The notes beneath the pieces are model-generated. The model was not told the origin of the DNA and did not search any database. It saw only the letters and a program-made list of their open reading frames with translations. A stretch of 4,961 nt of DNA, from positions 1-4,961 of the IMG/VR virus record IMGVR_UViG_2698536450_000012, one strand, 5' to 3'. The first letter of the stretch is position 1. Every line of letters starts with the position of its first letter. Origin of the DNA: a virus (Duplodnaviria > Heunggongvirae > Uroviricota > Caudoviricetes). Positions 1 through 4,961 of the stretch are shown here, in pieces. A program made the position numbers and the translations under genes.

Positions 1-84
1 AATGGCAGTGGCTACAGCGACGGCACCTTCTTCCTTTATTGCCTGTTCGTCCGGAATGGCGGCGCAAATAAAGACTTTACTCAT
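1..84 (-). CDS. Hypothetical protein, 5' end only (gene continues past the left edge of the window); N-terminus MSKVFICAAIPDEQAIKEEGAVAVATAI
   Basis: ATG at 84..82 on the minus strand, with a GAGGT Shine-Dalgarno (reverse complement of 93..97) 8 nt upstream. The frame is open to the window edge (28 codons). It is absent from the ORF track because no stop lies inside the window. Confidence 0.5.
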   Translation of the reverse strand, partial: MSKVFICAAIPDEQAIKEEGAVAVATAI

Positions 85-163
85 TTTGTTTTACCTCATT
101 ACAGATTTAAGGGTGAACAAATCCCTGCCATTGCTGGCATATAAAAATGAAACTGGATATTAA

Positions 164-367
164 TTACGGCGCTGTTTTTAATCCTGCCGGGATTTCGTTA
201 TTGTCCATGTGAATAACTTTATCGACCGGATAACAGTTGCCGGGAATTTTCTGTTCCGCTGCGGCAGCCATGCATTCTTTCATTGAGTTGTACATGCCGG
301 TGATTGCATCAAGCGACTCACCAGTATTGAGATGTACAGTCAGAATGAGTATGAATAATGTGTTCAT
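164..367 (-). CDS. Small hypothetical protein (67 aa from the ATG) with a hydrophobic N-terminal segment (MNTLFILILTVHLNTG), possibly a signal peptide or membrane anchor, and two Cys in the C-terminal part
   Basis: ORF track 164..373. The ATG at 367..365 overlaps the TGA stop of the upstream ORF (366..364) as ATGA, which suggests translational coupling. GGAGAG lies 5 nt upstream. The track start at 373 is a GTG two codons further up. Confidence 0.55.
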   Translation of the reverse strand: MNTLFILILTVHLNTGESLDAITGMYNSMKECMAAAAEQKIPGNCYPVDKVIHMDNNEIPAGLKTAP

Positions 368-552
368 CGCCACTCTCCGAAAATACCGAGTTTAAGAAGG
401 GCAATTCTGGAGAGTATGGAATTGTCATTCAGCAGGTAGGGTTCATATTTTCTCATATTGATTGCATCCTCGGTGAAATCCCTGTTACTGAGCAGAACAC
501 CAATATTAAAGCACCCGTCAGACGTATTAACGTTTGGTAGTGACGTTTCCAT
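364..552 (-). CDS. Small hypothetical protein, 62 aa, no recognisable domain
   Basis: ATG at 552..550 lies 10 nt downstream of the rha stop (565..563). A GAGGA Shine-Dalgarno overlaps the rha stop codon with a 7-nt spacer. Same strand and operon context as rha. Confidence 0.55.
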   Translation of the reverse strand: METSLPNVNTSDGCFNIGVLLSNRDFTEDAINMRKYEPYLLNDNSILSRIALLKLGIFGEWR

Positions 553-562
553 TATCGCGTCC

Positions 563-1120
563 TCAACAATGAATTTTTAGCAATTGCTCCACAGTCATAT
601 TTTTAATTGCGCTCCGGTTTACAAGAGTCCATCCTTGTTTCTCCAGATAAAACCGGAAGGTATCCAGGGTGCAGACCATTGCGCCGTCAGGAACGGTTTC
701 AGTGAATTTGATATTGCCGTGTTCGTCGAGACGGATAACTAGGGTGCGTCCGTCCCCGTGAATCATTTTGTCGGGAGACGGGGCGTTATTCTGGCGCAGT
801 TCTTCCTCCATGCGATCGAACTCAGCGATGTAGGCTTCTTTGAAAGTTGCGGCTTTTTTACCTGTGAACCCCATCACCAGGAAAACGAAGCCGTTTTTGG
901 TGATTTGGTACATGGGGCGTTTTTCGCCTTTGGCGTCGGTGTAGGTAACGGGCGTAAAATTGCGCTCGTTAAAATCTTCAGAGCATTCTAGCGTTTCAAT
1001 TTTGCGCAGAACGTCCTTGTGCATTTTGCGGAAGAACTCTGCAACCGCAACAGACGTAGTGACAGCGCGACCATTTTCGATGGTTACGTCAGGGTGAGAA
1101 AGGGTAGGGATAGTAGCCAT
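563..1120 (-). CDS. rha: Phage regulatory protein, Rha family (N-terminal Rha domain MATIPTLSHPDVTIENGRAVTTSVAVAEFFRKMHKDVLRKIETLE...KGEKRPMYQITKNGFVFLVMGFTGKKAATFKEAYIAEFDRMEEEL, plus a C-terminal domain of unknown function)
   Basis: Recognised from memory as the Rha (Phage_pRha) family. Start placed at the ATG at 1120..1118, which has an AAGAGG Shine-Dalgarno (reverse complement of 1129..1134) 8 nt upstream. The ORF track extends the frame to 1417, but that extension contains a terminator-like hairpin with a U-tract and has no domain-like sequence. Confidence 0.8.
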   Translation of the reverse strand: MATIPTLSHPDVTIENGRAVTTSVAVAEFFRKMHKDVLRKIETLECSEDFNERNFTPVTYTDAKGEKRPMYQITKNGFVFLVMGFTGKKAATFKEAYIAEFDRMEEELRQNNAPSPDKMIHGDGRTLVIRLDEHGNIKFTETVPDGAMVCTLDTFRFYLEKQGWTLVNRSAIKNMTVEQLLKIHC

Positions 1121-1150
1121 AATGGCAGCCTCTTGGTTGAGTATTAATAA

Positions 1151-1189
1151 CTCACCACCAAGGTTTTCCACGACCATAAGGGTGGTGAG
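1151..1189 (-). promoter_or_regulatory. Perfect 9-bp inverted repeat (CTCACCACC / GGTGGTGAG) with a 21-nt loop, in the rha 5' leader about 20 nt upstream of the Shine-Dalgarno
   Basis: Read directly: 1151..1159 is the reverse complement of 1181..1189. As RNA on the minus strand the loop contains GUGGAAAAC. Confidence 0.4.
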
Positions 1190-1288
1190 GCGTACAGGGG
1201 TGGAAATACCGGTCAACCAAGAATCCGGCCAGCCTTGCAGCTGCCCTGCACGCCCCACCATAATCTGAATGTGGCTGTGCTTGACGCA

Positions 1289-1312
1289 TAAAAAAACCGC
1301 CTGAGCGCGGTT
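1289..1312 (-). terminator. Candidate intrinsic terminator on the minus strand (stem aaccgc/gcgguu, 6-nt loop, then U7)
   Basis: On the plus strand an A-run (1290..1296) precedes the hairpin at 1295..1312, so on the minus strand the hairpin is followed by UUUUUUU. The stem is short (4 GC and 2 AU pairs), so strength is moderate. Confidence 0.5.
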
Positions 1313-1372
1313 ATGCGCTTGATTGAATTCCGGGTTTCCACGCCCGGCACCCGTTTTATGAGGTGCAGGTGC

Positions 1373-1401
1373 ACTATAATTCCACCCGTTCTGGTTTTCA
1401 A
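1373..1401 (-). promoter_or_regulatory. Candidate sigma70 promoter on the minus strand: -35 TTGAAA (1401..1396), 17-bp spacer, -10 TATAGT (1378..1373); predicted start near 1366
   Basis: Both hexamers match consensus at 5 of 6 positions with the optimal 17-bp spacer. It lies about 75 nt upstream of the terminator at 1289..1312. Confidence 0.4.
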
Positions 1402-1904
1402 TAGCTACATTCAACATTTTCTCTTACCTTTCATCACCGAAGTGAACTTTGTTGATGCGGTGCCTGGTGCCTCCAGGTGACGTTAACCAGTTAACAATTA
1501 ACGCCGGATACAGAGAATCCACCCATAACACTGTTTTTGGTTTTAACTGTTCCGCGTGCGCTGAGCCGCATTCACCGCATCACAAAATTCACTTTAAAAA
1601 GGGCGGCAGAGCAGCCACGGAGTAAAACTGATACTGCCAAACGTCACCAGAAAATTGATAACAGAGGGCGTTGCAGCGGGGTTGTCACTTAAGCGTATGG
1701 TCAACCTGACAACCCGGTGTCCTCAACGGGGAAGGAATAACCCCGCCATACTTACCGCCGCGCCATTTCGCGGAGTGCCACAACCGGAAGCGCACGGTCG
1801 ACGAAAATTTAACGACAGGCTATCTATGAACCAGCAACCTCGCCGTGCACTTTCGCGTTATGCTCTGACTTTTCAGAGAAATATCCTTTCAGTAAACTGT
1901 CAGT

Positions 1905-1954
1905 GCCGGATGTTCACCCGTGTCCGGCGCACGCACTCCACTTCACCCGTGGAG
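1905..1954. other. Two adjacent stem-loops with a shared loop motif TTCACCCGTG (plus strand) / CACGGGUGAA (minus-strand RNA)
   Basis: Hairpin A has stem 1905..1910 / 1923..1928 (gccgga/tccggc) and a 12-nt loop. Hairpin B has stem 1936..1941 / 1949..1954 (ctccac/gtggag) and a 7-nt loop. The 10-mer TTCACCCGTG occurs at 1913..1922 and 1942..1951. Confidence 0.45.
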
Positions 1955-1993
1955 AACTCCTTAATTACCAACCTTAGCTTCGTTGGTTAGCTA

Positions 1994-2212
1994 TTAACGC
2001 GGGTATGTAATCATTCTGGCAATGCTTAATGCCGCTGCTTTTTCCAGATTGGTGATATCCTGCTCCAGAGCGGACAGATTTTCAGCCTGCTTAGCCCTGG
2101 CTTCATTGGCCCATTTCAGGTCCTGCGCTGCCTTAATTTTCTGGTGCATCCACTCATAAAGTTCATCATCGGTATAGTCTGGCGCGATGATGACGGGTTC
2201 TCGTTTCTGCAT
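1994..2212 (-). CDS. Small hypothetical phage protein, 72 aa (MQKREPVIIAPDYTDDELYEWMHQKIKAAQDLKWANEARAKQAENLSALEQDITNLEKAAALSIARMITYPR)
   Basis: ATG at 2212..2210 with an AAGGAG Shine-Dalgarno 5 nt upstream. The sequence looks protein-like (charged, helical). Same orientation as the leftward early operon. Confidence 0.65.
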   Translation of the reverse strand: MQKREPVIIAPDYTDDELYEWMHQKIKAAQDLKWANEARAKQAENLSALEQDITNLEKAAALSIARMITYPR

Positions 2213-2283
2213 GTCGGCTCCTTGTGGTTAGCGTTGCCTGCTTTTAACCACGTCAGGCGAGGTGGTATCCTCTGAGGGGTCTG

Positions 2284-2640
2284 TTACTCGAGAGGAAATT
2301 GGTTATGAATACAATCAAGTTTTCTTGCCCAGAATGTGGCGGCGAAGTCTTTGACACATCCTTTAAACCGCATGGCTCTGACAGTTTCGCGGGAGCCATC
2401 TGCAAAAATTGTGGTCACCTTGTAACTGAAGATGAGTCCTCGCAGTTTGATGACGAAATCGTTGACAATATCTTCGGTGCACTCACCAGAGACTTTCTGA
2501 AGTAAAGGCGCATACCGCTTAGTTACCGCTCTGATAATTCTTACCTGTCCGGCAATGGCGCTGATATCAATATAAAGCGCCATCGCTGTTTCTTTGCTGA
2601 TCCCTGGATGCCTTCCATTCTGATGTTTGACTTCGCCCAC
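2284..2640 (-). CDS. Alternative call: 118-aa ORF immediately downstream of the leftward early promoter (GTG start), fully overlapping the zinc-ribbon ORF on the opposite strand
   Basis: GTG at 2640..2638 with an AGAGGA Shine-Dalgarno and a 7-nt spacer, about 70 nt downstream of the candidate leftward promoter. Against it: 5 of 9 Arg codons are AGA/AGG, there is no recognisable domain, and antisense frames in the same register often stay open by chance. Confidence 0.3.
   Translation of the reverse strand: MGEVKHQNGRHPGISKETAMALYIDISAIAGQVRIIRAVTKRYAPLLQKVSGECTEDIVNDFVIKLRGLIFSYKVTTIFADGSRETVRAMRFKGCVKDFAATFWARKLDCIHNQFPLE
2305..2505 (+). CDS. Small C4 zinc-ribbon protein, 66 aa (CPEC ... CKNC), with an acidic C-terminal tail (EDESSQFDDEIVD)
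   Basis: ATG at 2305 with an AGAGGA Shine-Dalgarno and an 8-nt spacer. Two CxxC pairs are 23 residues apart. Codon usage is ordinary. It is antisense to, and in the same codon register as, the minus ORF 2284..2640, so only one of the two may be real. Confidence 0.55.
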   Translation: MNTIKFSCPECGGEVFDTSFKPHGSDSFAGAICKNCGHLVTEDESSQFDDEIVDNIFGALTRDFLK

Positions 2641-2718
2641 TGAGAAATCCTCTGTTTCCCCTTAACGCCGGGGTAGCGGAACTAAGACCTGTCGCACCGT
2701 TGTGCTTTGATGGAATAC

Positions 2719-2747
2719 ATTGTTCTCTCTAGGTGAACAAAAGTCAA
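2719..2747 (-). promoter_or_regulatory. Candidate leftward early promoter (pL-like) on the minus strand: -35 TTGACT (2747..2742), 17-bp spacer, -10 AACAAT (2724..2719), overlapped by an operator-like inverted repeat TGTTC-N9-GAACA (2721..2739)
   Basis: Same hexamers, spacer length and embedded inverted repeat as the rightward promoter at 3249..3277. It sits immediately downstream of the repressor terminator. Confidence 0.5.
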
Positions 2748-2761
2748 CATGATGAATACGC

Positions 2762-2791
2762 AAAAAAAAAAAAAAACCGCCTTGCGGCGGT
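2762..2791 (-). terminator. Strong intrinsic terminator of the repressor transcript (stem accgcc/ggcggu, GCAA tetraloop, then U15)
   Basis: On the plus strand A15 (2762..2776) is followed by ccgcc ttgc ggcgg (2777..2790). On the minus strand this is a GC hairpin followed by 15 U, about 25 nt downstream of the repressor stop (2813). Confidence 0.8.
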
Positions 2792-2812
2792 ATGATTCTG
2801 TAAAATAAAGAA

Positions 2813-3202
2813 TTATTTTTGTCGTGTTATTGGGTCGACGTATTCTGAGTAAAATTCGGTCAGTTTTTGGAGTCGCATTTGAAAAGCTGCCAGCATATTT
2901 CTACGTTCTACAGGTGGCAGGTTTCTGTAAACATCAAGCAGGGCCTTCTCGTCATCATCAAGCGCCTCTCTATTTGTCTCTTCTTTCCCTGTCAGTAGCC
3001 AAGAAAGGGAAACGTTTGTGGCTTCTGCAATTTTGGCTGCGGAATCTTTACTGATTGTTCCTCTTTTTTTCCATGCGTTGACTGATGAACGACCTACACC
3101 AGCGATACGCGCTAAATCTGAACCACTTAAATGATGCTGTTGAGAGATCGTATCTAACCTTTCTGCTAGCGGGGTGTCGTATTGCTTTTTTCTCATGTCC
3201 AT
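2813..3202 (-). CDS. Prophage repressor, XRE-type helix-turn-helix (cI / RacR / DicA-like), 129 aa
   Basis: Helix-turn-helix motif LSGSDLARIAGVGRSSVNAWKKRG. Divergent from the Cro-like gene. A consensus TATAAT ends 7 nt before the ATG, which predicts a leaderless transcript with no Shine-Dalgarno, as for lambda cI from pRM. Confidence 0.85.
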   Translation of the reverse strand: MDMRKKQYDTPLAERLDTISQQHHLSGSDLARIAGVGRSSVNAWKKRGTISKDSAAKIAEATNVSLSWLLTGKEETNREALDDDEKALLDVYRNLPPVERRNMLAAFQMRLQKLTEFYSEYVDPITRQK

Positions 3203-3208
3203 TTGGCA

Positions 3209-3236
3209 ATTATAACCGTTCAGTGAACACTAACAA
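3209..3236 (-). promoter_or_regulatory. Candidate repressor-maintenance promoter (pRM-like) on the minus strand: -35 TTGTTA (3236..3231), 16-bp spacer, -10 TATAAT (3214..3209); the spacer contains the palindrome GTTCAgTGAAC (3218..3228)
   Basis: Hexamers and spacing read directly. The predicted transcription start coincides with the A of the repressor ATG at 3202. Confidence 0.5.
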
Positions 3237-3248
3237 TTCCTCGAGGTG

Positions 3249-3277
3249 TTGACTTGTGTTCGTTTTAAGTGAACAAT
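3249..3277 (+). promoter_or_regulatory. Candidate rightward early promoter (pR-like): -35 TTGACT (3249..3254), 17-bp spacer, -10 AACAAT (3272..3277), overlapped by an operator-like inverted repeat TGTTC-N9-GAACA (3257..3275)
   Basis: Back-to-back with the pRM-like promoter. A GGAGG Shine-Dalgarno (3297..3301) precedes the ATG at 3306. Confidence 0.5.
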
Positions 3278-3305
3278 CGTTGTGGTTAGTTGAACTGGAG
3301 GTTGT

Positions 3306-3581
3306 ATGACAGCATTGGACAAAGCAATAAAGATTGCTGGTGGTATTCGTCCGCTAGGGCGTGCAATAGGGGCTTGGCCATCTCAAATACACAAATGGGC
3401 AAATGAATACAATGGTCGAGTGCCGACGGGAGAACGGGTTCGTCAAATTTATATTGCAACTGGGGTTACTCCTCATGAATTGCGACCAGATTTATACCCG
3501 AATCCAACTGACGGGTTGCCTGCTGGAGATAAGGCTAACACACCAAATACACCGGAGTTGATTCATGAAAATCAAGCATGA
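3306..3581 (+). CDS. ydaS: Cro-like DNA-binding regulator, YdaS family, 91 aa
   Basis: Divergent from the repressor, with a GGAGG Shine-Dalgarno. The motif GVTPHELRPDLYP is typical of the YdaS / Cro-type family as recalled from memory. Confidence 0.8.
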   Translation: MTALDKAIKIAGGIRPLGRAIGAWPSQIHKWANEYNGRVPTGERVRQIYIATGVTPHELRPDLYPNPTDGLPAGDKANTPNTPELIHENQA

Positions 3582-3990
3582 ACACATCCGCATGGCGATG
3601 AATGCCTGGGCGCGTCCTGATGGCGAAAAAGTTCCAGCAGCTGGAATAACCCAGGCTTATTTTGAGTTGGGTATGACGTTTCCTGAACTGTATGACGACA
3701 GCCATCCGGAAGCCCTGGCTCGCAATACACAGAAAATTTTCCGCTGGGTAGAGAAAGACACCCCTGATGCAGTTGAAAAAATTCAGGCGTTGTTACCAGC
3801 GATCGAAAAGGCAATGCCACCTTTGCTGGTGGCCAGAATGCGCAGCCACAGTTCAGCTTATTTTCGGGAGCTGGTGGAGACGCGGGAGCGACTGGTGAGA
3901 GACGCTGATGATTTTGTCGCAGTGGCAATCGCCGGTTTCAATCAGATGAACCGTGGTGGCCCGGCAGGAAATGCTGTGGCAGTACATTGA
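3565..3990 (+). CDS. ydaT: YdaT-family regulator, 141 aa, in the cII-equivalent position
   Basis: The N-terminus MKIKHEHI and the C-terminal ...AVAVH match what I recall of Rac YdaT. The start overlaps the ydaS-like stop by 17 nt. GGAG lies 8 nt upstream. Confidence 0.8.
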   Translation: MKIKHEHIRMAMNAWARPDGEKVPAAGITQAYFELGMTFPELYDDSHPEALARNTQKIFRWVEKDTPDAVEKIQALLPAIEKAMPPLLVARMRSHSSAYFRELVETRERLVRDADDFVAVAIAGFNQMNRGGPAGNAVAVH

Positions 3991-4061
3991 CTGACAATAG
4001 CCATATCGAATCGCTTCCGGCAACTCGTGAGTAAAATGATTCGGTATCAGAAGAGGTGAGT

Positions 4062-4961
4062 ATGGCTAACGCCTGGCTCAGATTATGGCATGACATGCCA
4101 AATGACCCTAAGTGGCGAACAATTGCCAGGGTGTCAGGGCAGCCAATTGCAACAGTGATGGCAGTGTATATCCACCTCCTGGTGAGCGCGTCACGAAATG
4201 TCACGCGAGGTCACATTGATGTCACGACAGAAGATTTGGCAAGTGCGCTCGACGTGACAGAAGAGGTAATTGATTCAATTTTGCAGACGATGCAGGGGCG
4301 GGTACTTGATGGTGATTTAATCACTGGATGGGAAAAACGCCAGGTGCTGAAAGAGGACAACGGCAATATTTCGCAAACCGCAAAATCTCCTGCAGAGCGC
4401 AAGAGGGCGCAGCGAGAGAGGGAAAGAAAGCGGGAACAAAATGGCGATTGTCACGGCGCGTCACGAAATGTCACGCACATGTCACGACGAGTCACGACAG
4501 ATAAAGATACAGATAAAGATACAGATCAAGAAGATCAAAACACTATGGTCCATGGCGTAAAAAACGCCACGAACCAGGCAGGGGATGTTCAGACCGTCAA
4601 TCCTGGTCAGCCAGCAGGCACGACACCGGAAGCCGATTCAGCGTATGCGCTGAAAGCCGATTCGGGCGCTGTGCAGCAGGTGATGACCGCAAGGCCGGAG
4701 CAATCACACCAACTGCAGCAGCCTGAAGCCGATTCCGCCATTCAGCGGGAAGCCGATCGGGTAGTCCCGGAAAGCACCGGGCAGTCTGTGGGACGAGTGG
4801 ATTATCCGGATGTGTTCGAACAGGTCTGGCGGGAATACCCGTTGCGTGCCGGGGCAAACCCGAAGAAATCCGCTTTCAGTGCCTGGAAGGCCAGATTGCG
4901 CGAGGGGGTGCCACCAGAGACCATGCTGGATGGTGTGAGGCGTTACGCGAGATACCTGGCG
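4062..4961 (+). CDS. Phage replication initiation / replisome-organizer-type protein, 3' end outside the window (300 codons open to the edge); YdaU / lambda-O-equivalent position; family assignment unverified
   Basis: ATG at 4062 with an AGAGGTGA Shine-Dalgarno. Translated by hand with no stop to position 4961 (MANAWLRLWHDMPNDPKWRTIARVSGQPIATVMAVYIHLL...). Two iteron clusters lie inside the gene. It is absent from the ORF track because it has no stop. Confidence 0.8.
   Translation, partial: MANAWLRLWHDMPNDPKWRTIARVSGQPIATVMAVYIHLLVSASRNVTRGHIDVTTEDLASALDVTEEVIDSILQTMQGRVLDGDLITGWEKRQVLKEDNGNISQTAKSPAERKRAQRERERKREQNGDCHGASRNVTHMSRRVTTDKDTDKDTDQEDQNTMVHGVKNATNQAGDVQTVNPGQPAGTTPEADSAYALKADSGAVQQVMTARPEQSHQLQQPEADSAIQREADRVVPESTGQSVGRVDYPDVFEQVWREYPLRAGANPKKSAFSAWKARLREGVPPETMLDGVRRYARYLA
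4190..4230. repeat. Iteron cluster 1: four GTCACG/GTCACA repeats at 10-11 bp spacing (4190, 4200, 4210, 4221)
   Basis: Read directly: gtcacgaaat gtcacgcgag gtcacattgat gtcacgacag. The spacing is helically phased. Confidence 0.6.
4450..4541. repeat. Iteron cluster 2: five GTCACG repeats (4450, 4460, 4470, 4481, 4491), then an A-rich tract with a tandem 12-bp repeat CAGATAAAGATA x2 (4498..4521) and two GATC sites (4524, 4533); candidate phage origin of replication
   Basis: Read directly. The 18-mer GCGTCACGAAATGTCACG is shared between the two clusters (4187..4204 and 4457..4474). Iterons followed by an AT-rich segment inside the initiator gene mirror the lambda origin within gene O. Confidence 0.6.

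Follow-up and report, generated by a model that had tools for sequence, protein, structure and literature searches.

Does the DNA immediately upstream of the phage regulatory gene rha encode the N-terminus of its protein, a small RNA (sRNA) or a leader that controls the gene? The question arises in a stretch of 4,961 nucleotides (nt) (IMG/VR record IMGVR_UViG_2698536450_000012, positions 1 to 4,961; hereafter the window), which is part of an Escherichia coli lambdoid prophage. An earlier inspection of this DNA (the original prediction) had placed a near-consensus sigma70 promoter on the minus strand, followed by a GC hairpin, an AU-rich stretch and a terminator-like hairpin with seven U residues (U7), and had read the unit as an sRNA or a terminator-controlled leader of rha. 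Here we report that the unit is very probably an E. coli prophage copy of IsrK, the counterpart of seqA in P4 and of the a1/b1 element of P1/P7, and that it forms the first part of an RNA-immunity cassette and shares the overall control logic of such cassettes. The element is thus of an already known kind, belonging to a described family whose mechanism was worked out in Gifsy-1, P4 and P1.

An IsrK-type RNA upstream of rha

When the window was scanned against all Rfam families, the unit matched isrK (RF01394) over its full length (model positions 1-77; 69.2 bits; gathering score, 50; E = 7.9e-14). The GC hairpin, the AU-rich stretch and the U7 terminator were all found on the minus strand where they had been predicted (Table 1), as was the promoter, in which TTGAAA and TATAGT are separated by 17 nt and 10 of the 12 hexamer positions match the consensus. 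Further, hairpin 1, which the original prediction had missed, was present both in the Rfam model and in the minimum free energy (MFE) fold of the 77 nt, which has three hairpins. The transcript predicted from isrK model position 1 is 77 nt long, close to the anticipated length of about 75 nt. Model position 1 follows the -10 hexamer at a distance of 7 nt, and thus the promoter and the RNA fit together. Both the sRNA and the leader reading are supported, since IsrK of Gifsy-1 is both (PMC4825925).

Motif counts and folding energy were unremarkable. A promoter scan returned 10 promoter-like sites in the whole window (5.5 expected from shuffles), a terminator scan returned 13 terminator-like sites (5.6 expected), and the fold energy of the 77-nt RNA was -23.8 kcal/mol (z = -1.24). 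The site counts are about twice those of shuffles and the fold energy is not significant, and we therefore set these values aside as evidence on their own.

To follow the unit across phages, we used two collections of related loci. BLAST against phage genomes returned 176 records, in many of which similarity starts at query position 82-86, which corresponds to IsrK +1, and extends into the downstream gene. A pattern scan of viral contigs returned about 110 further loci, which gave 98 unique cassettes. When 67 unique upstream sequences were placed in register by means of the IsrK hairpins, T-12, A-11, A-9 and T-7 of the -10 hexamer were present in 52, 63, 62 and 65 of them, respectively, and TTGA occupied -35 to -32. 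The two hexamers stood at a fixed distance from IsrK, in agreement with the Gifsy-1 numbering of the predicted start site. The spacers belonged to several unrelated sequence families; thus the hexamers hold their position while the spacer diverges. The promoter region of the window also aligned with the P4 PLE and Gifsy-1 PisrK regions.

Hairpin 1 and the terminator stem were conserved as RNA. Among 50 distinct sequences, hairpin 1 showed changes on both sides in six of its seven pairs. The covariation score of the whole structure was 0.223 compared with 0.117 for shuffles, a value that was reached by 0 of 500 shuffles and that exceeded all slid controls. The stem of hairpin 2 was invariant across the aligned sequences and is therefore uninformative in this respect. 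MAFFT placed the terminator arms out of register (54% of cells paired), and we replaced this alignment with per-sequence extraction of the stem. The terminator stem then appeared in at least four compensatory versions (CCGC/GCGG, GACGC/GCGTC, ACACGC/GCGTGT and GCCAGC/GCTGGT), each followed by a T-run.

A C4-type RNA and three copies of its pairing sites

The Rfam scan detected a second RNA, absent from the original prediction, that begins 24 nt after the IsrK terminator. This C4-type antisense RNA is the equivalent of c4 of P1/P7, the CI RNA of P4 and STnc1160 of Salmonella, and its fold is significant (z = -3.7). The same order was found in all of 10 diverse phage loci (from Stx phages, ST64B, cdtI, a P2-like phage, a Klebsiella phage and a Yersinia phage), where isrK (56-75 bits) is followed by C4 (68-84 bits) at a spacing of about 24 nt. 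The tandem pair is also present in Gifsy-1 and, as seqA and CI, in P4.

C4 exposes two segments, a' and b', each of which is complementary to one site in IsrK (a1, b1) and one site before rha (a2, b2; Table 1). The predicted duplex between IsrK nucleotides 21-52 and the C4 loops had an energy of -24.2 kcal/mol (shuffles, -15.7 +/- 3.3), and that between the C4 loops and the rha start region had an energy of -28.3 kcal/mol (shuffles, -16.8 +/- 3.3). In the collected cassettes, a1, a' and a2 covaried over about 24 sequence types, and b1, b' and b2 covaried over about 42 types of b' loop; with few exceptions, the three copies of a site changed together. For about 40 b-types, b2 matched b' as its reverse complement, and its last nucleotides were the GAGG of the ribosome-binding site. 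The match of b' to the downstream sequence averaged 8.5 nt for cognate pairs compared with 4.4 nt for non-cognate pairs. The corresponding run-length test of a' with a1 and a2 separated cognate from non-cognate pairs weakly, with 6% of the cognate pairs above the non-cognate 95th percentile. Because the extraction of a' was imprecise and many types share CCAA, an explicit table of types replaced this test.

Two further conserved elements lie in or near C4. A GGUGGUGAG box at 1148..1156 (minus strand), just past a2, occupies the same position in all aligned loci; it repeats the 5' arm of C4 (AUGGUGGGG) and is complementary to the 3' arm (CUCACCACC). Pairing through this box might possibly disrupt or mimic the closing stem of C4. 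In the 5' arm of C4 itself, an AUG (1259..1261, minus strand) is conserved in all loci as AUUAUGG. It is the start of orf45 in Gifsy-1. In the window it is in frame with rha, and initiation there would yield Rha with 47 additional residues and no separate small open reading frame (ORF).

The pairing sites bear on whether the unit is purely a cis-acting leader or attenuator, in which the 77-nt RNA would be an inert by-product and a1 and b1 would act only on the nascent transcript. The cassette directly precedes its only obvious target and always retains the terminator, and seqA of P4 has been described as a cis target of the CI RNA in termination control, where pairing promotes premature termination. 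However, the short IsrK of Gifsy-1 supplied in trans activates anrP 114- to 171-fold, and the G28A and G31A mutants lose this activity (PMC4825925). The RNA of the window shares the three-hairpin layout of the Gifsy-1 RNA and is preceded by a conserved promoter of its own. Although the sequence alone separates neither mode of action from the other, we regard an exclusively cis-acting unit as possible but unlikely.

The 99-codon extension of rha

The original prediction had noted that the ORF finder fuses this region to rha as 99 additional codons. The span was confirmed: a 284-codon ORF (1417..563) contains the rha start codon at 1120 as a nested ATG, and its upstream frame spans the promoter, which is the equivalent of P4 PLE, as well as IsrK and C4. 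The view that the fusion is merely a product of ORF finding did not hold, because the frame was free of stop codons in all 62 loci of the Rha-linked subgroup (distance from IsrK +1 to the ATG, 243 or 246 nt; 44 unique segments). In this subgroup, stop codons accounted for 0 of 553 distinct position/codon pairs in the rha frame, compared with 32 of 546 and 27 of 547 in the other two frames, and the depletion was separately present in IsrK, the spacer, C4 and the stretch before the ATG. Further, the rha frame opened upstream of IsrK +1 in all Rha-linked loci. A Shine-Dalgarno (SD)-like sequence with an in-frame ATG (ATG 1417 in the window) was found 51-57 nt before IsrK +1, upstream of the -35 hexamer, in five or more upstream contexts unrelated to one another.

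The extension could accordingly be ordinary coding sequence, that is, a genuine 'Ash' domain forming the N-terminus of a 284-residue Rha, with the RNA matches being secondary and IsrK having arisen from a protein gene. The overlap between IsrK and ASH domains has been noticed before as homology, and IsrK was proposed to have evolved from the protein domain (PMC8825220). Pfam 'Ash' (PF10554) matched residues 14-109 of the 284-residue ORF with 52.6 bits (cutoff, 26), and RefSeq lists a 284-residue Rha coding sequence (CDS) with no non-coding RNA annotated at this place. The stop-free frame and its conserved SD and ATG are also as expected of a gene. However, the third-position wobble expected of translation was not observed. 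Variable columns at codon positions 1, 2 and 3 numbered 55, 57 and 53 in one length class and 47, 58 and 48 in the other, compared with 25, 22 and 50 in the true rha coding region, which served as a control. The synonymous fraction in the extension frame (0.26-0.30) equaled that of the other frames (0.23-0.26), whereas rha gave 0.63 compared with 0.13-0.18 in its other frames. The PF10554 region thus displayed neither the codon-position bias nor the synonymous excess expected of a protein domain, and no NCBIfam model matched the 99 codons.

Variation was instead concentrated in the six RNA pairing sites, which covary as RNA. In the Gifsy-1, Klebsiella and Yersinia subgroups, the frame contains stop codons but both RNAs are kept, and only a short ORF starts from the conserved AUG in C4. 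In P4, the 'Ash' family matches the former 'cI protein' ORF, which lies over the CI RNA. We therefore consider an ordinary protein-coding extension improbable. By the wobble criterion of the original prediction, the extension is not ordinary coding sequence, yet it is no accident either, because the frame is stop-free. The lack of amino-acid constraint suggests to us that IsrK did not originate from an ASH domain.

Related loci

The remaining explanation, a chance co-occurrence of promoter-like, hairpin and terminator-like sites without function, could appeal to motif frequencies only about twice those of shuffles and to the non-significant fold energy, but it is refuted by the E-value of the isrK match and by conservation with covariation in about 100 loci from P4 and from phages of E. 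coli, Salmonella, Klebsiella and Yersinia.

Two variants of the cassette were observed among the collected loci. In some phage contigs, complete IsrK-C4 cassettes follow one another at intervals of about 656 nt, as tandem sets of two or three, and each copy has a different a/b specificity and a short ORF downstream (L029 at 4676/5335, L042 at 9712/10368/11024, L091 at 7842/8495, L114 and L120). In a P2-like subgroup (L008, 1146..1763, and 12 similar loci), a stop-free ORF likewise covers both IsrK and C4, its start lying about 57-87 nt upstream of IsrK; this ORF uses a different frame relative to the predicted start codon, and its C-terminal part is unrelated to Rha.

A putative mechanism

On the basis of these features and of the known systems, we propose five steps. 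First, the promoter at 1401..1373, inside the long ORF, would start an RNA at about 1366, and most transcripts would stop at the U7 terminator to give the 77-nt IsrK, as suggested by homology and by the conservation of the promoter, hairpins and terminator. Second, RNAs that read through would carry the C4-type RNA; its counterparts in P1, P4 and Salmonella are released from the longer transcript by processing and persist as stable species of about 80 nt. Third, the exposed a' (UUUCCAC) and b' (CUUGGUUGA) of C4 would pair with a2 and b2, a pairing demonstrated by the covariation, and translation of rha from ATG 1120 would stay off because b2 covers its SD; that C4 represses rha is likely by analogy with P1 and P4. 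Fourth, since a1 in the hairpin 2 loop and b1 in the linker are copies of both C4 target sites, IsrK would compete for the C4 loops. In cis, these sites would lock the leader. In trans, IsrK would free the ribosome-binding site and switch on the downstream regulator, as in Gifsy-1; we hold this trans-acting step with less confidence than the identification of the unit and the overall logic. Fifth, transcripts from further upstream, in a DicF/dicB-type early-left operon, would include ATG 1417, and ribosomes starting there would cross the terminator and C4 and so escape RNA control. The stop-free frame and the eta/kil precedent of P4 point to such an override.

Several observations weigh against this reading of the locus. 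Pairing of b1 with b' in the window needs a G-U pair, and its longest exact run is 5 nt. 'Structure A' of Gifsy-1 was not found in the MFE fold of the 189-nt read-through RNA, in which IsrK and C4 stay separate modules, although a nested MFE fold cannot display loop-loop contacts. The Rfam model c4-a1b1 (RF03163) scored 25.5 bits in the window, below its threshold of 46.7, whereas the Gifsy-1 copy scored 48.1. Transcription from 1366 to near 1290 and the processing of C4 are, for this locus, predictions drawn from homologs. The effector of the window has a Rha domain, in contrast to the ORF6N-domain protein AnrP of Gifsy-1; because AnrP belongs to this different family, an antirepressor role for Rha is an assumption, and we regard it as uncertain. 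Finally, because AUG 1261 is in frame with rha, the details of translational coupling must differ from those of Gifsy-1.

The preferred reading, an IsrK-C4 immunity cassette in front of rha, can be extended to the 'Ash' sequence as a whole. We advance this extension tentatively, as somewhat less likely to be right than wrong. The 'Ash' extension of Rha-type regulators would be no protein domain but the stop-free translation of the IsrK and C4 genes. Its frame would be kept only so that upstream-initiated ribosomes can traverse the terminator and the antisense RNA on early-operon transcripts and thereby override RNA immunity, in the manner of P4 eta, and this arrangement would be conserved across lambdoid prophages. 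The a/b loops would form a combinatorial specificity code for cross-regulation of prophages and satellites.

The 'Ash' protein family does appear to be a translation of RNA genes, stop-free and without amino-acid constraint; if so, the direction of descent proposed in PMC8825220, from an ASH protein domain to IsrK, would be reversed. Further, dozens of pairing specificities are represented among the cassettes, and these would determine the cross-talk between co-resident prophages. If the code is real, the loop types (at least 20 for a and at least 40 for b, with mosaic recombination) would govern cross-regulation among co-resident prophages and satellites combinatorially.

Genomic setting

The IsrK unit lies in a leftward operon with the order ydfC, DicF, IsrK, rha and dicB (Table 1). 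Full-length DicF, which the original prediction had also missed, is located about 235 nt upstream of IsrK on the same strand, and together with ydfC and the DicB-like ORF it places the IsrK-C4-rha cassette inside a dicB-type operon. The rightward genes of the window are Cro-like, YdaT (CII position) and replisome-organizer genes.

Table 1. Positions of the RNA elements, pairing sites and genes in the window (pairing, transcript and processing features are predicted)
Feature	Position	Strand	Description
IsrK promoter, sigma70 type	1373..1401	minus	-35 TTGAAA 1401..1396; 17-nt spacer; -10 TATAGT 1378..1373
IsrK/seqA-type RNA, 77 nt	1366..1290	minus	hairpin 1, hairpin 2, AU-rich linker, intrinsic terminator with U7
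IsrK hairpin 1	1366..1347	minus	GCACCU / loop CAUAAAAC / GGGUGC; Rfam model and MFE fold
IsrK hairpin 2	1346..1331	minus	CGGG/CCCG stem; loop CGUGGAAA; carries site a1
Site a1	1341..1335	minus	GUGGAAA; hairpin 2 loop; complementary to a' of C4
Site b1	1326..1318	minus	UCAAUCAAG; IsrK linker; complementary to C4 b' loop with one G-U pair
IsrK intrinsic terminator	1312..1290	minus	AACCGC / GCUCAG / GCGGUU + U7
C4-type antisense RNA	1265..1178	minus	Rfam RF01695; 78 bits, gathering score 45; E 1.1e-14
C4 b' loop	1224..1213	minus	AUUCUUGGUUGA
C4 b' pairing segment	1221..1213	minus	CUUGGUUGA
C4 site a'	1206..1200	minus	UUUCCAC
Site a2	1171..1164	minus	GUGGAAAA; downstream target of C4 a'
Site b2	1140..1130	minus	UCAACCAAGAG; overlaps rha SD AAGAGG
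rha SD	1134..1129	minus	AAGAGG; 8 nt before ATG 1120
Upstream 99 codons of the long ORF	1417..1121	minus	ATG 1417; SD-like AAGG/AAGAG just before; Pfam 'Ash' PF10554
rha (Phage_pRha domain)	563..1120	minus	ATG 1120, MATIPTLSHPD; Pfam PF09669, E 4.6e-31; TIGR02681
DicB-like ORF, 62 residues	364..552	minus	leftward operon
DicF sRNA, full-length	1652..1601	minus	Rfam RF00039; 67.3 bits, threshold 48
ydfC	1994..2212	minus	leftward operon
CI/LexA-type repressor	2813..3202	minus	

Between DicF and ATG 1417, a sub-threshold match to the Salmonella sRNA STnc100 was found at 1448..1589 on the minus strand (36.6 bits; threshold, 47). A related genome has a truncated dicB pseudogene, called by PGAP, at the STnc100-like position and an intact dicB after rha, an arrangement that suggests insertion of the Ash-Rha cassette at the 5' end of dicB.

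The cassette (1110 to 1420) was found in 712 of 5426 complete E. coli genomes and had at least 99% identity in 154; the copy in E. coli strain 7/2 (NZ_CP023820) is 100% identical. In the listed records it is annotated solely as a 'Rha family phage regulatory protein' CDS; the RefSeq label of the stretch is the 284-residue 'Rha family' CDS, and IsrK and C4 are unmarked under the match in every listed record. The single related region that was retrieved whole likewise held no annotated RNA gene. The practical value of the present identification is thus in annotation, namely of IsrK and C4 where the cassette carries the Rha label.

Two other features of the window were observed. Just past the repressor gene, a GC hairpin (ACCGCC GCAA GGCGGT) with 15 consecutive A in front of it (2761..2791) can be read on the minus strand as a terminator with a long T-run. 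This element probably terminates in both directions, between the repressor gene and a small plus-strand gene (2299..2505). Further, clusters of GTCACG / TCACGAAATGTCACGC repeats at 4185..4245 and 4450..4500 (plus strand) lie inside the replisome-organizer gene, which starts at 4063. They look like origin iterons embedded in an O-type replication gene.

Comparison with Gifsy-1, P4 and P1/P7

Barquist et al. (2013; PMC3632133) already used the term 'IsrK-C4 immunity system' and mentioned copies of it in lambdoid prophages. IsrK of Gifsy-1, a structural homolog of P4 seqA, exists as a short terminated sRNA and also as the 5' part of a read-through isrK-orf45-anrP mRNA (Hershko-Shalev et al., 2016; PMC4825925). 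The long form is translationally silent, the short form in trans raises anrP translation more than 100-fold, and STnc1160, of about 80 nt, is processed from the read-through transcript (PMC4825925). The layout of the window is the same: a sigma70 promoter, then the 77-nt RNA (two 5' hairpins, AU-rich linker, U-rich terminator), after about 24 nt a C4-type RNA, and finally a regulator gene with a ribosome-binding site to which the b' loop of C4 is complementary. The compensatory pairs G28A/C162U and G31A/C159U tested in Gifsy-1 (PMC4825925) map exactly onto its a1:a' pairs, and thus the published 'helix b-I' is the a1:a' interaction; the nucleotides of the a1 loop of the window correspond to G28 and G31.

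Apart from the effector, the two loci differ in three respects. The a and b sequences are GUGGAAA and UCAAUCAAG in the window compared with UUGGCGU and UCACCG in Gifsy-1. In Gifsy-1, the AUG in C4 is the start codon of an independent ORF of 45 codons, orf45, which terminates at the anrP start and whose translation is needed for coupling, whereas in the window this AUG belongs to the rha frame, which is already open upstream of the promoter. Lastly, the cassette of the window is in the early-left DicF/dicB operon, whereas that of Gifsy-1 follows the late antiterminator gene antQ.

Our comparison with P4 is based on its sequence and on summaries in PMC4825925, PMC3632133 and PMC10111431. In the P4 genome, Rfam isrK matched seqA and Rfam C4 matched CI. 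A 214-codon ORF (8812..8168) starts upstream of PLE, runs through seqA and CI, and contains the in-frame nested start MATTLTPSHPE of the 65-residue kil, which aligns with EAAIMATIPTLSHPD of the window. The nested-start junction EAAIMAT is common to both (EAAIMATT in P4 eta/kil, EAAIMATI in the window), so that rha is in the position of kil. In both, the promoter is within a long ORF that starts upstream, the in-frame nested start follows CI/C4, a b2-type site lies over the SD of the nested start, and Pfam 'Ash' maps onto RNA-coding DNA. As summarized in PMC10111431, eta holds a constitutive internal promoter whose transcript is quickly terminated and processed to CI, Kil is a truncated form of Eta, and full-length Eta is translated only from the upstream promoter, its translation preventing termination. 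The stop-free frame of the window would fit this logic, in which translation from an upstream promoter overrides RNA immunity. P4 differs from the window in that about 90 extra nt separate seqA and CI, and in that the nested gene is kil and not a Rha-domain gene. Rho-dependent termination at timm has been described for P4, and a discrete IsrK-like short RNA has been no focus of P4 work.

The P4 sequence also bears on the use of 'Ash' as a marker. A satellite census used PF10554 as a marker of epsilon, stating that P4 epsilon is 'Ash' (PMC8628076). We rejected this assignment: in P4 (L132, 7888..8584, minus strand), epsilon, the protein for derepression of the helper, matched PF25738, and PF10554 matched the obsolete 'cI protein' ORF over the CI RNA. 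Because PF10554 lies over the CI RNA, it may detect the RNA-immunity region instead of epsilon in that census.

The third known system is the immI operon of P1/P7, in which the c4 antisense RNA and its targets a1/b1 and a2/b2 stand in front of icd-ant. In the window, by comparison, the downstream gene is of the Rha type and not icd or ant, and the a1/b1 region remains below the RF03163 threshold, as noted above. By description, the arrangement is otherwise alike. In both, the C4 RNA is co-transcribed with its own targets, a' and b' each have a complementary site on either side of C4, b2 lies over the ribosome-binding site of the first translated gene, and the loop sequences set the specificity, as indicated here by their covariation.

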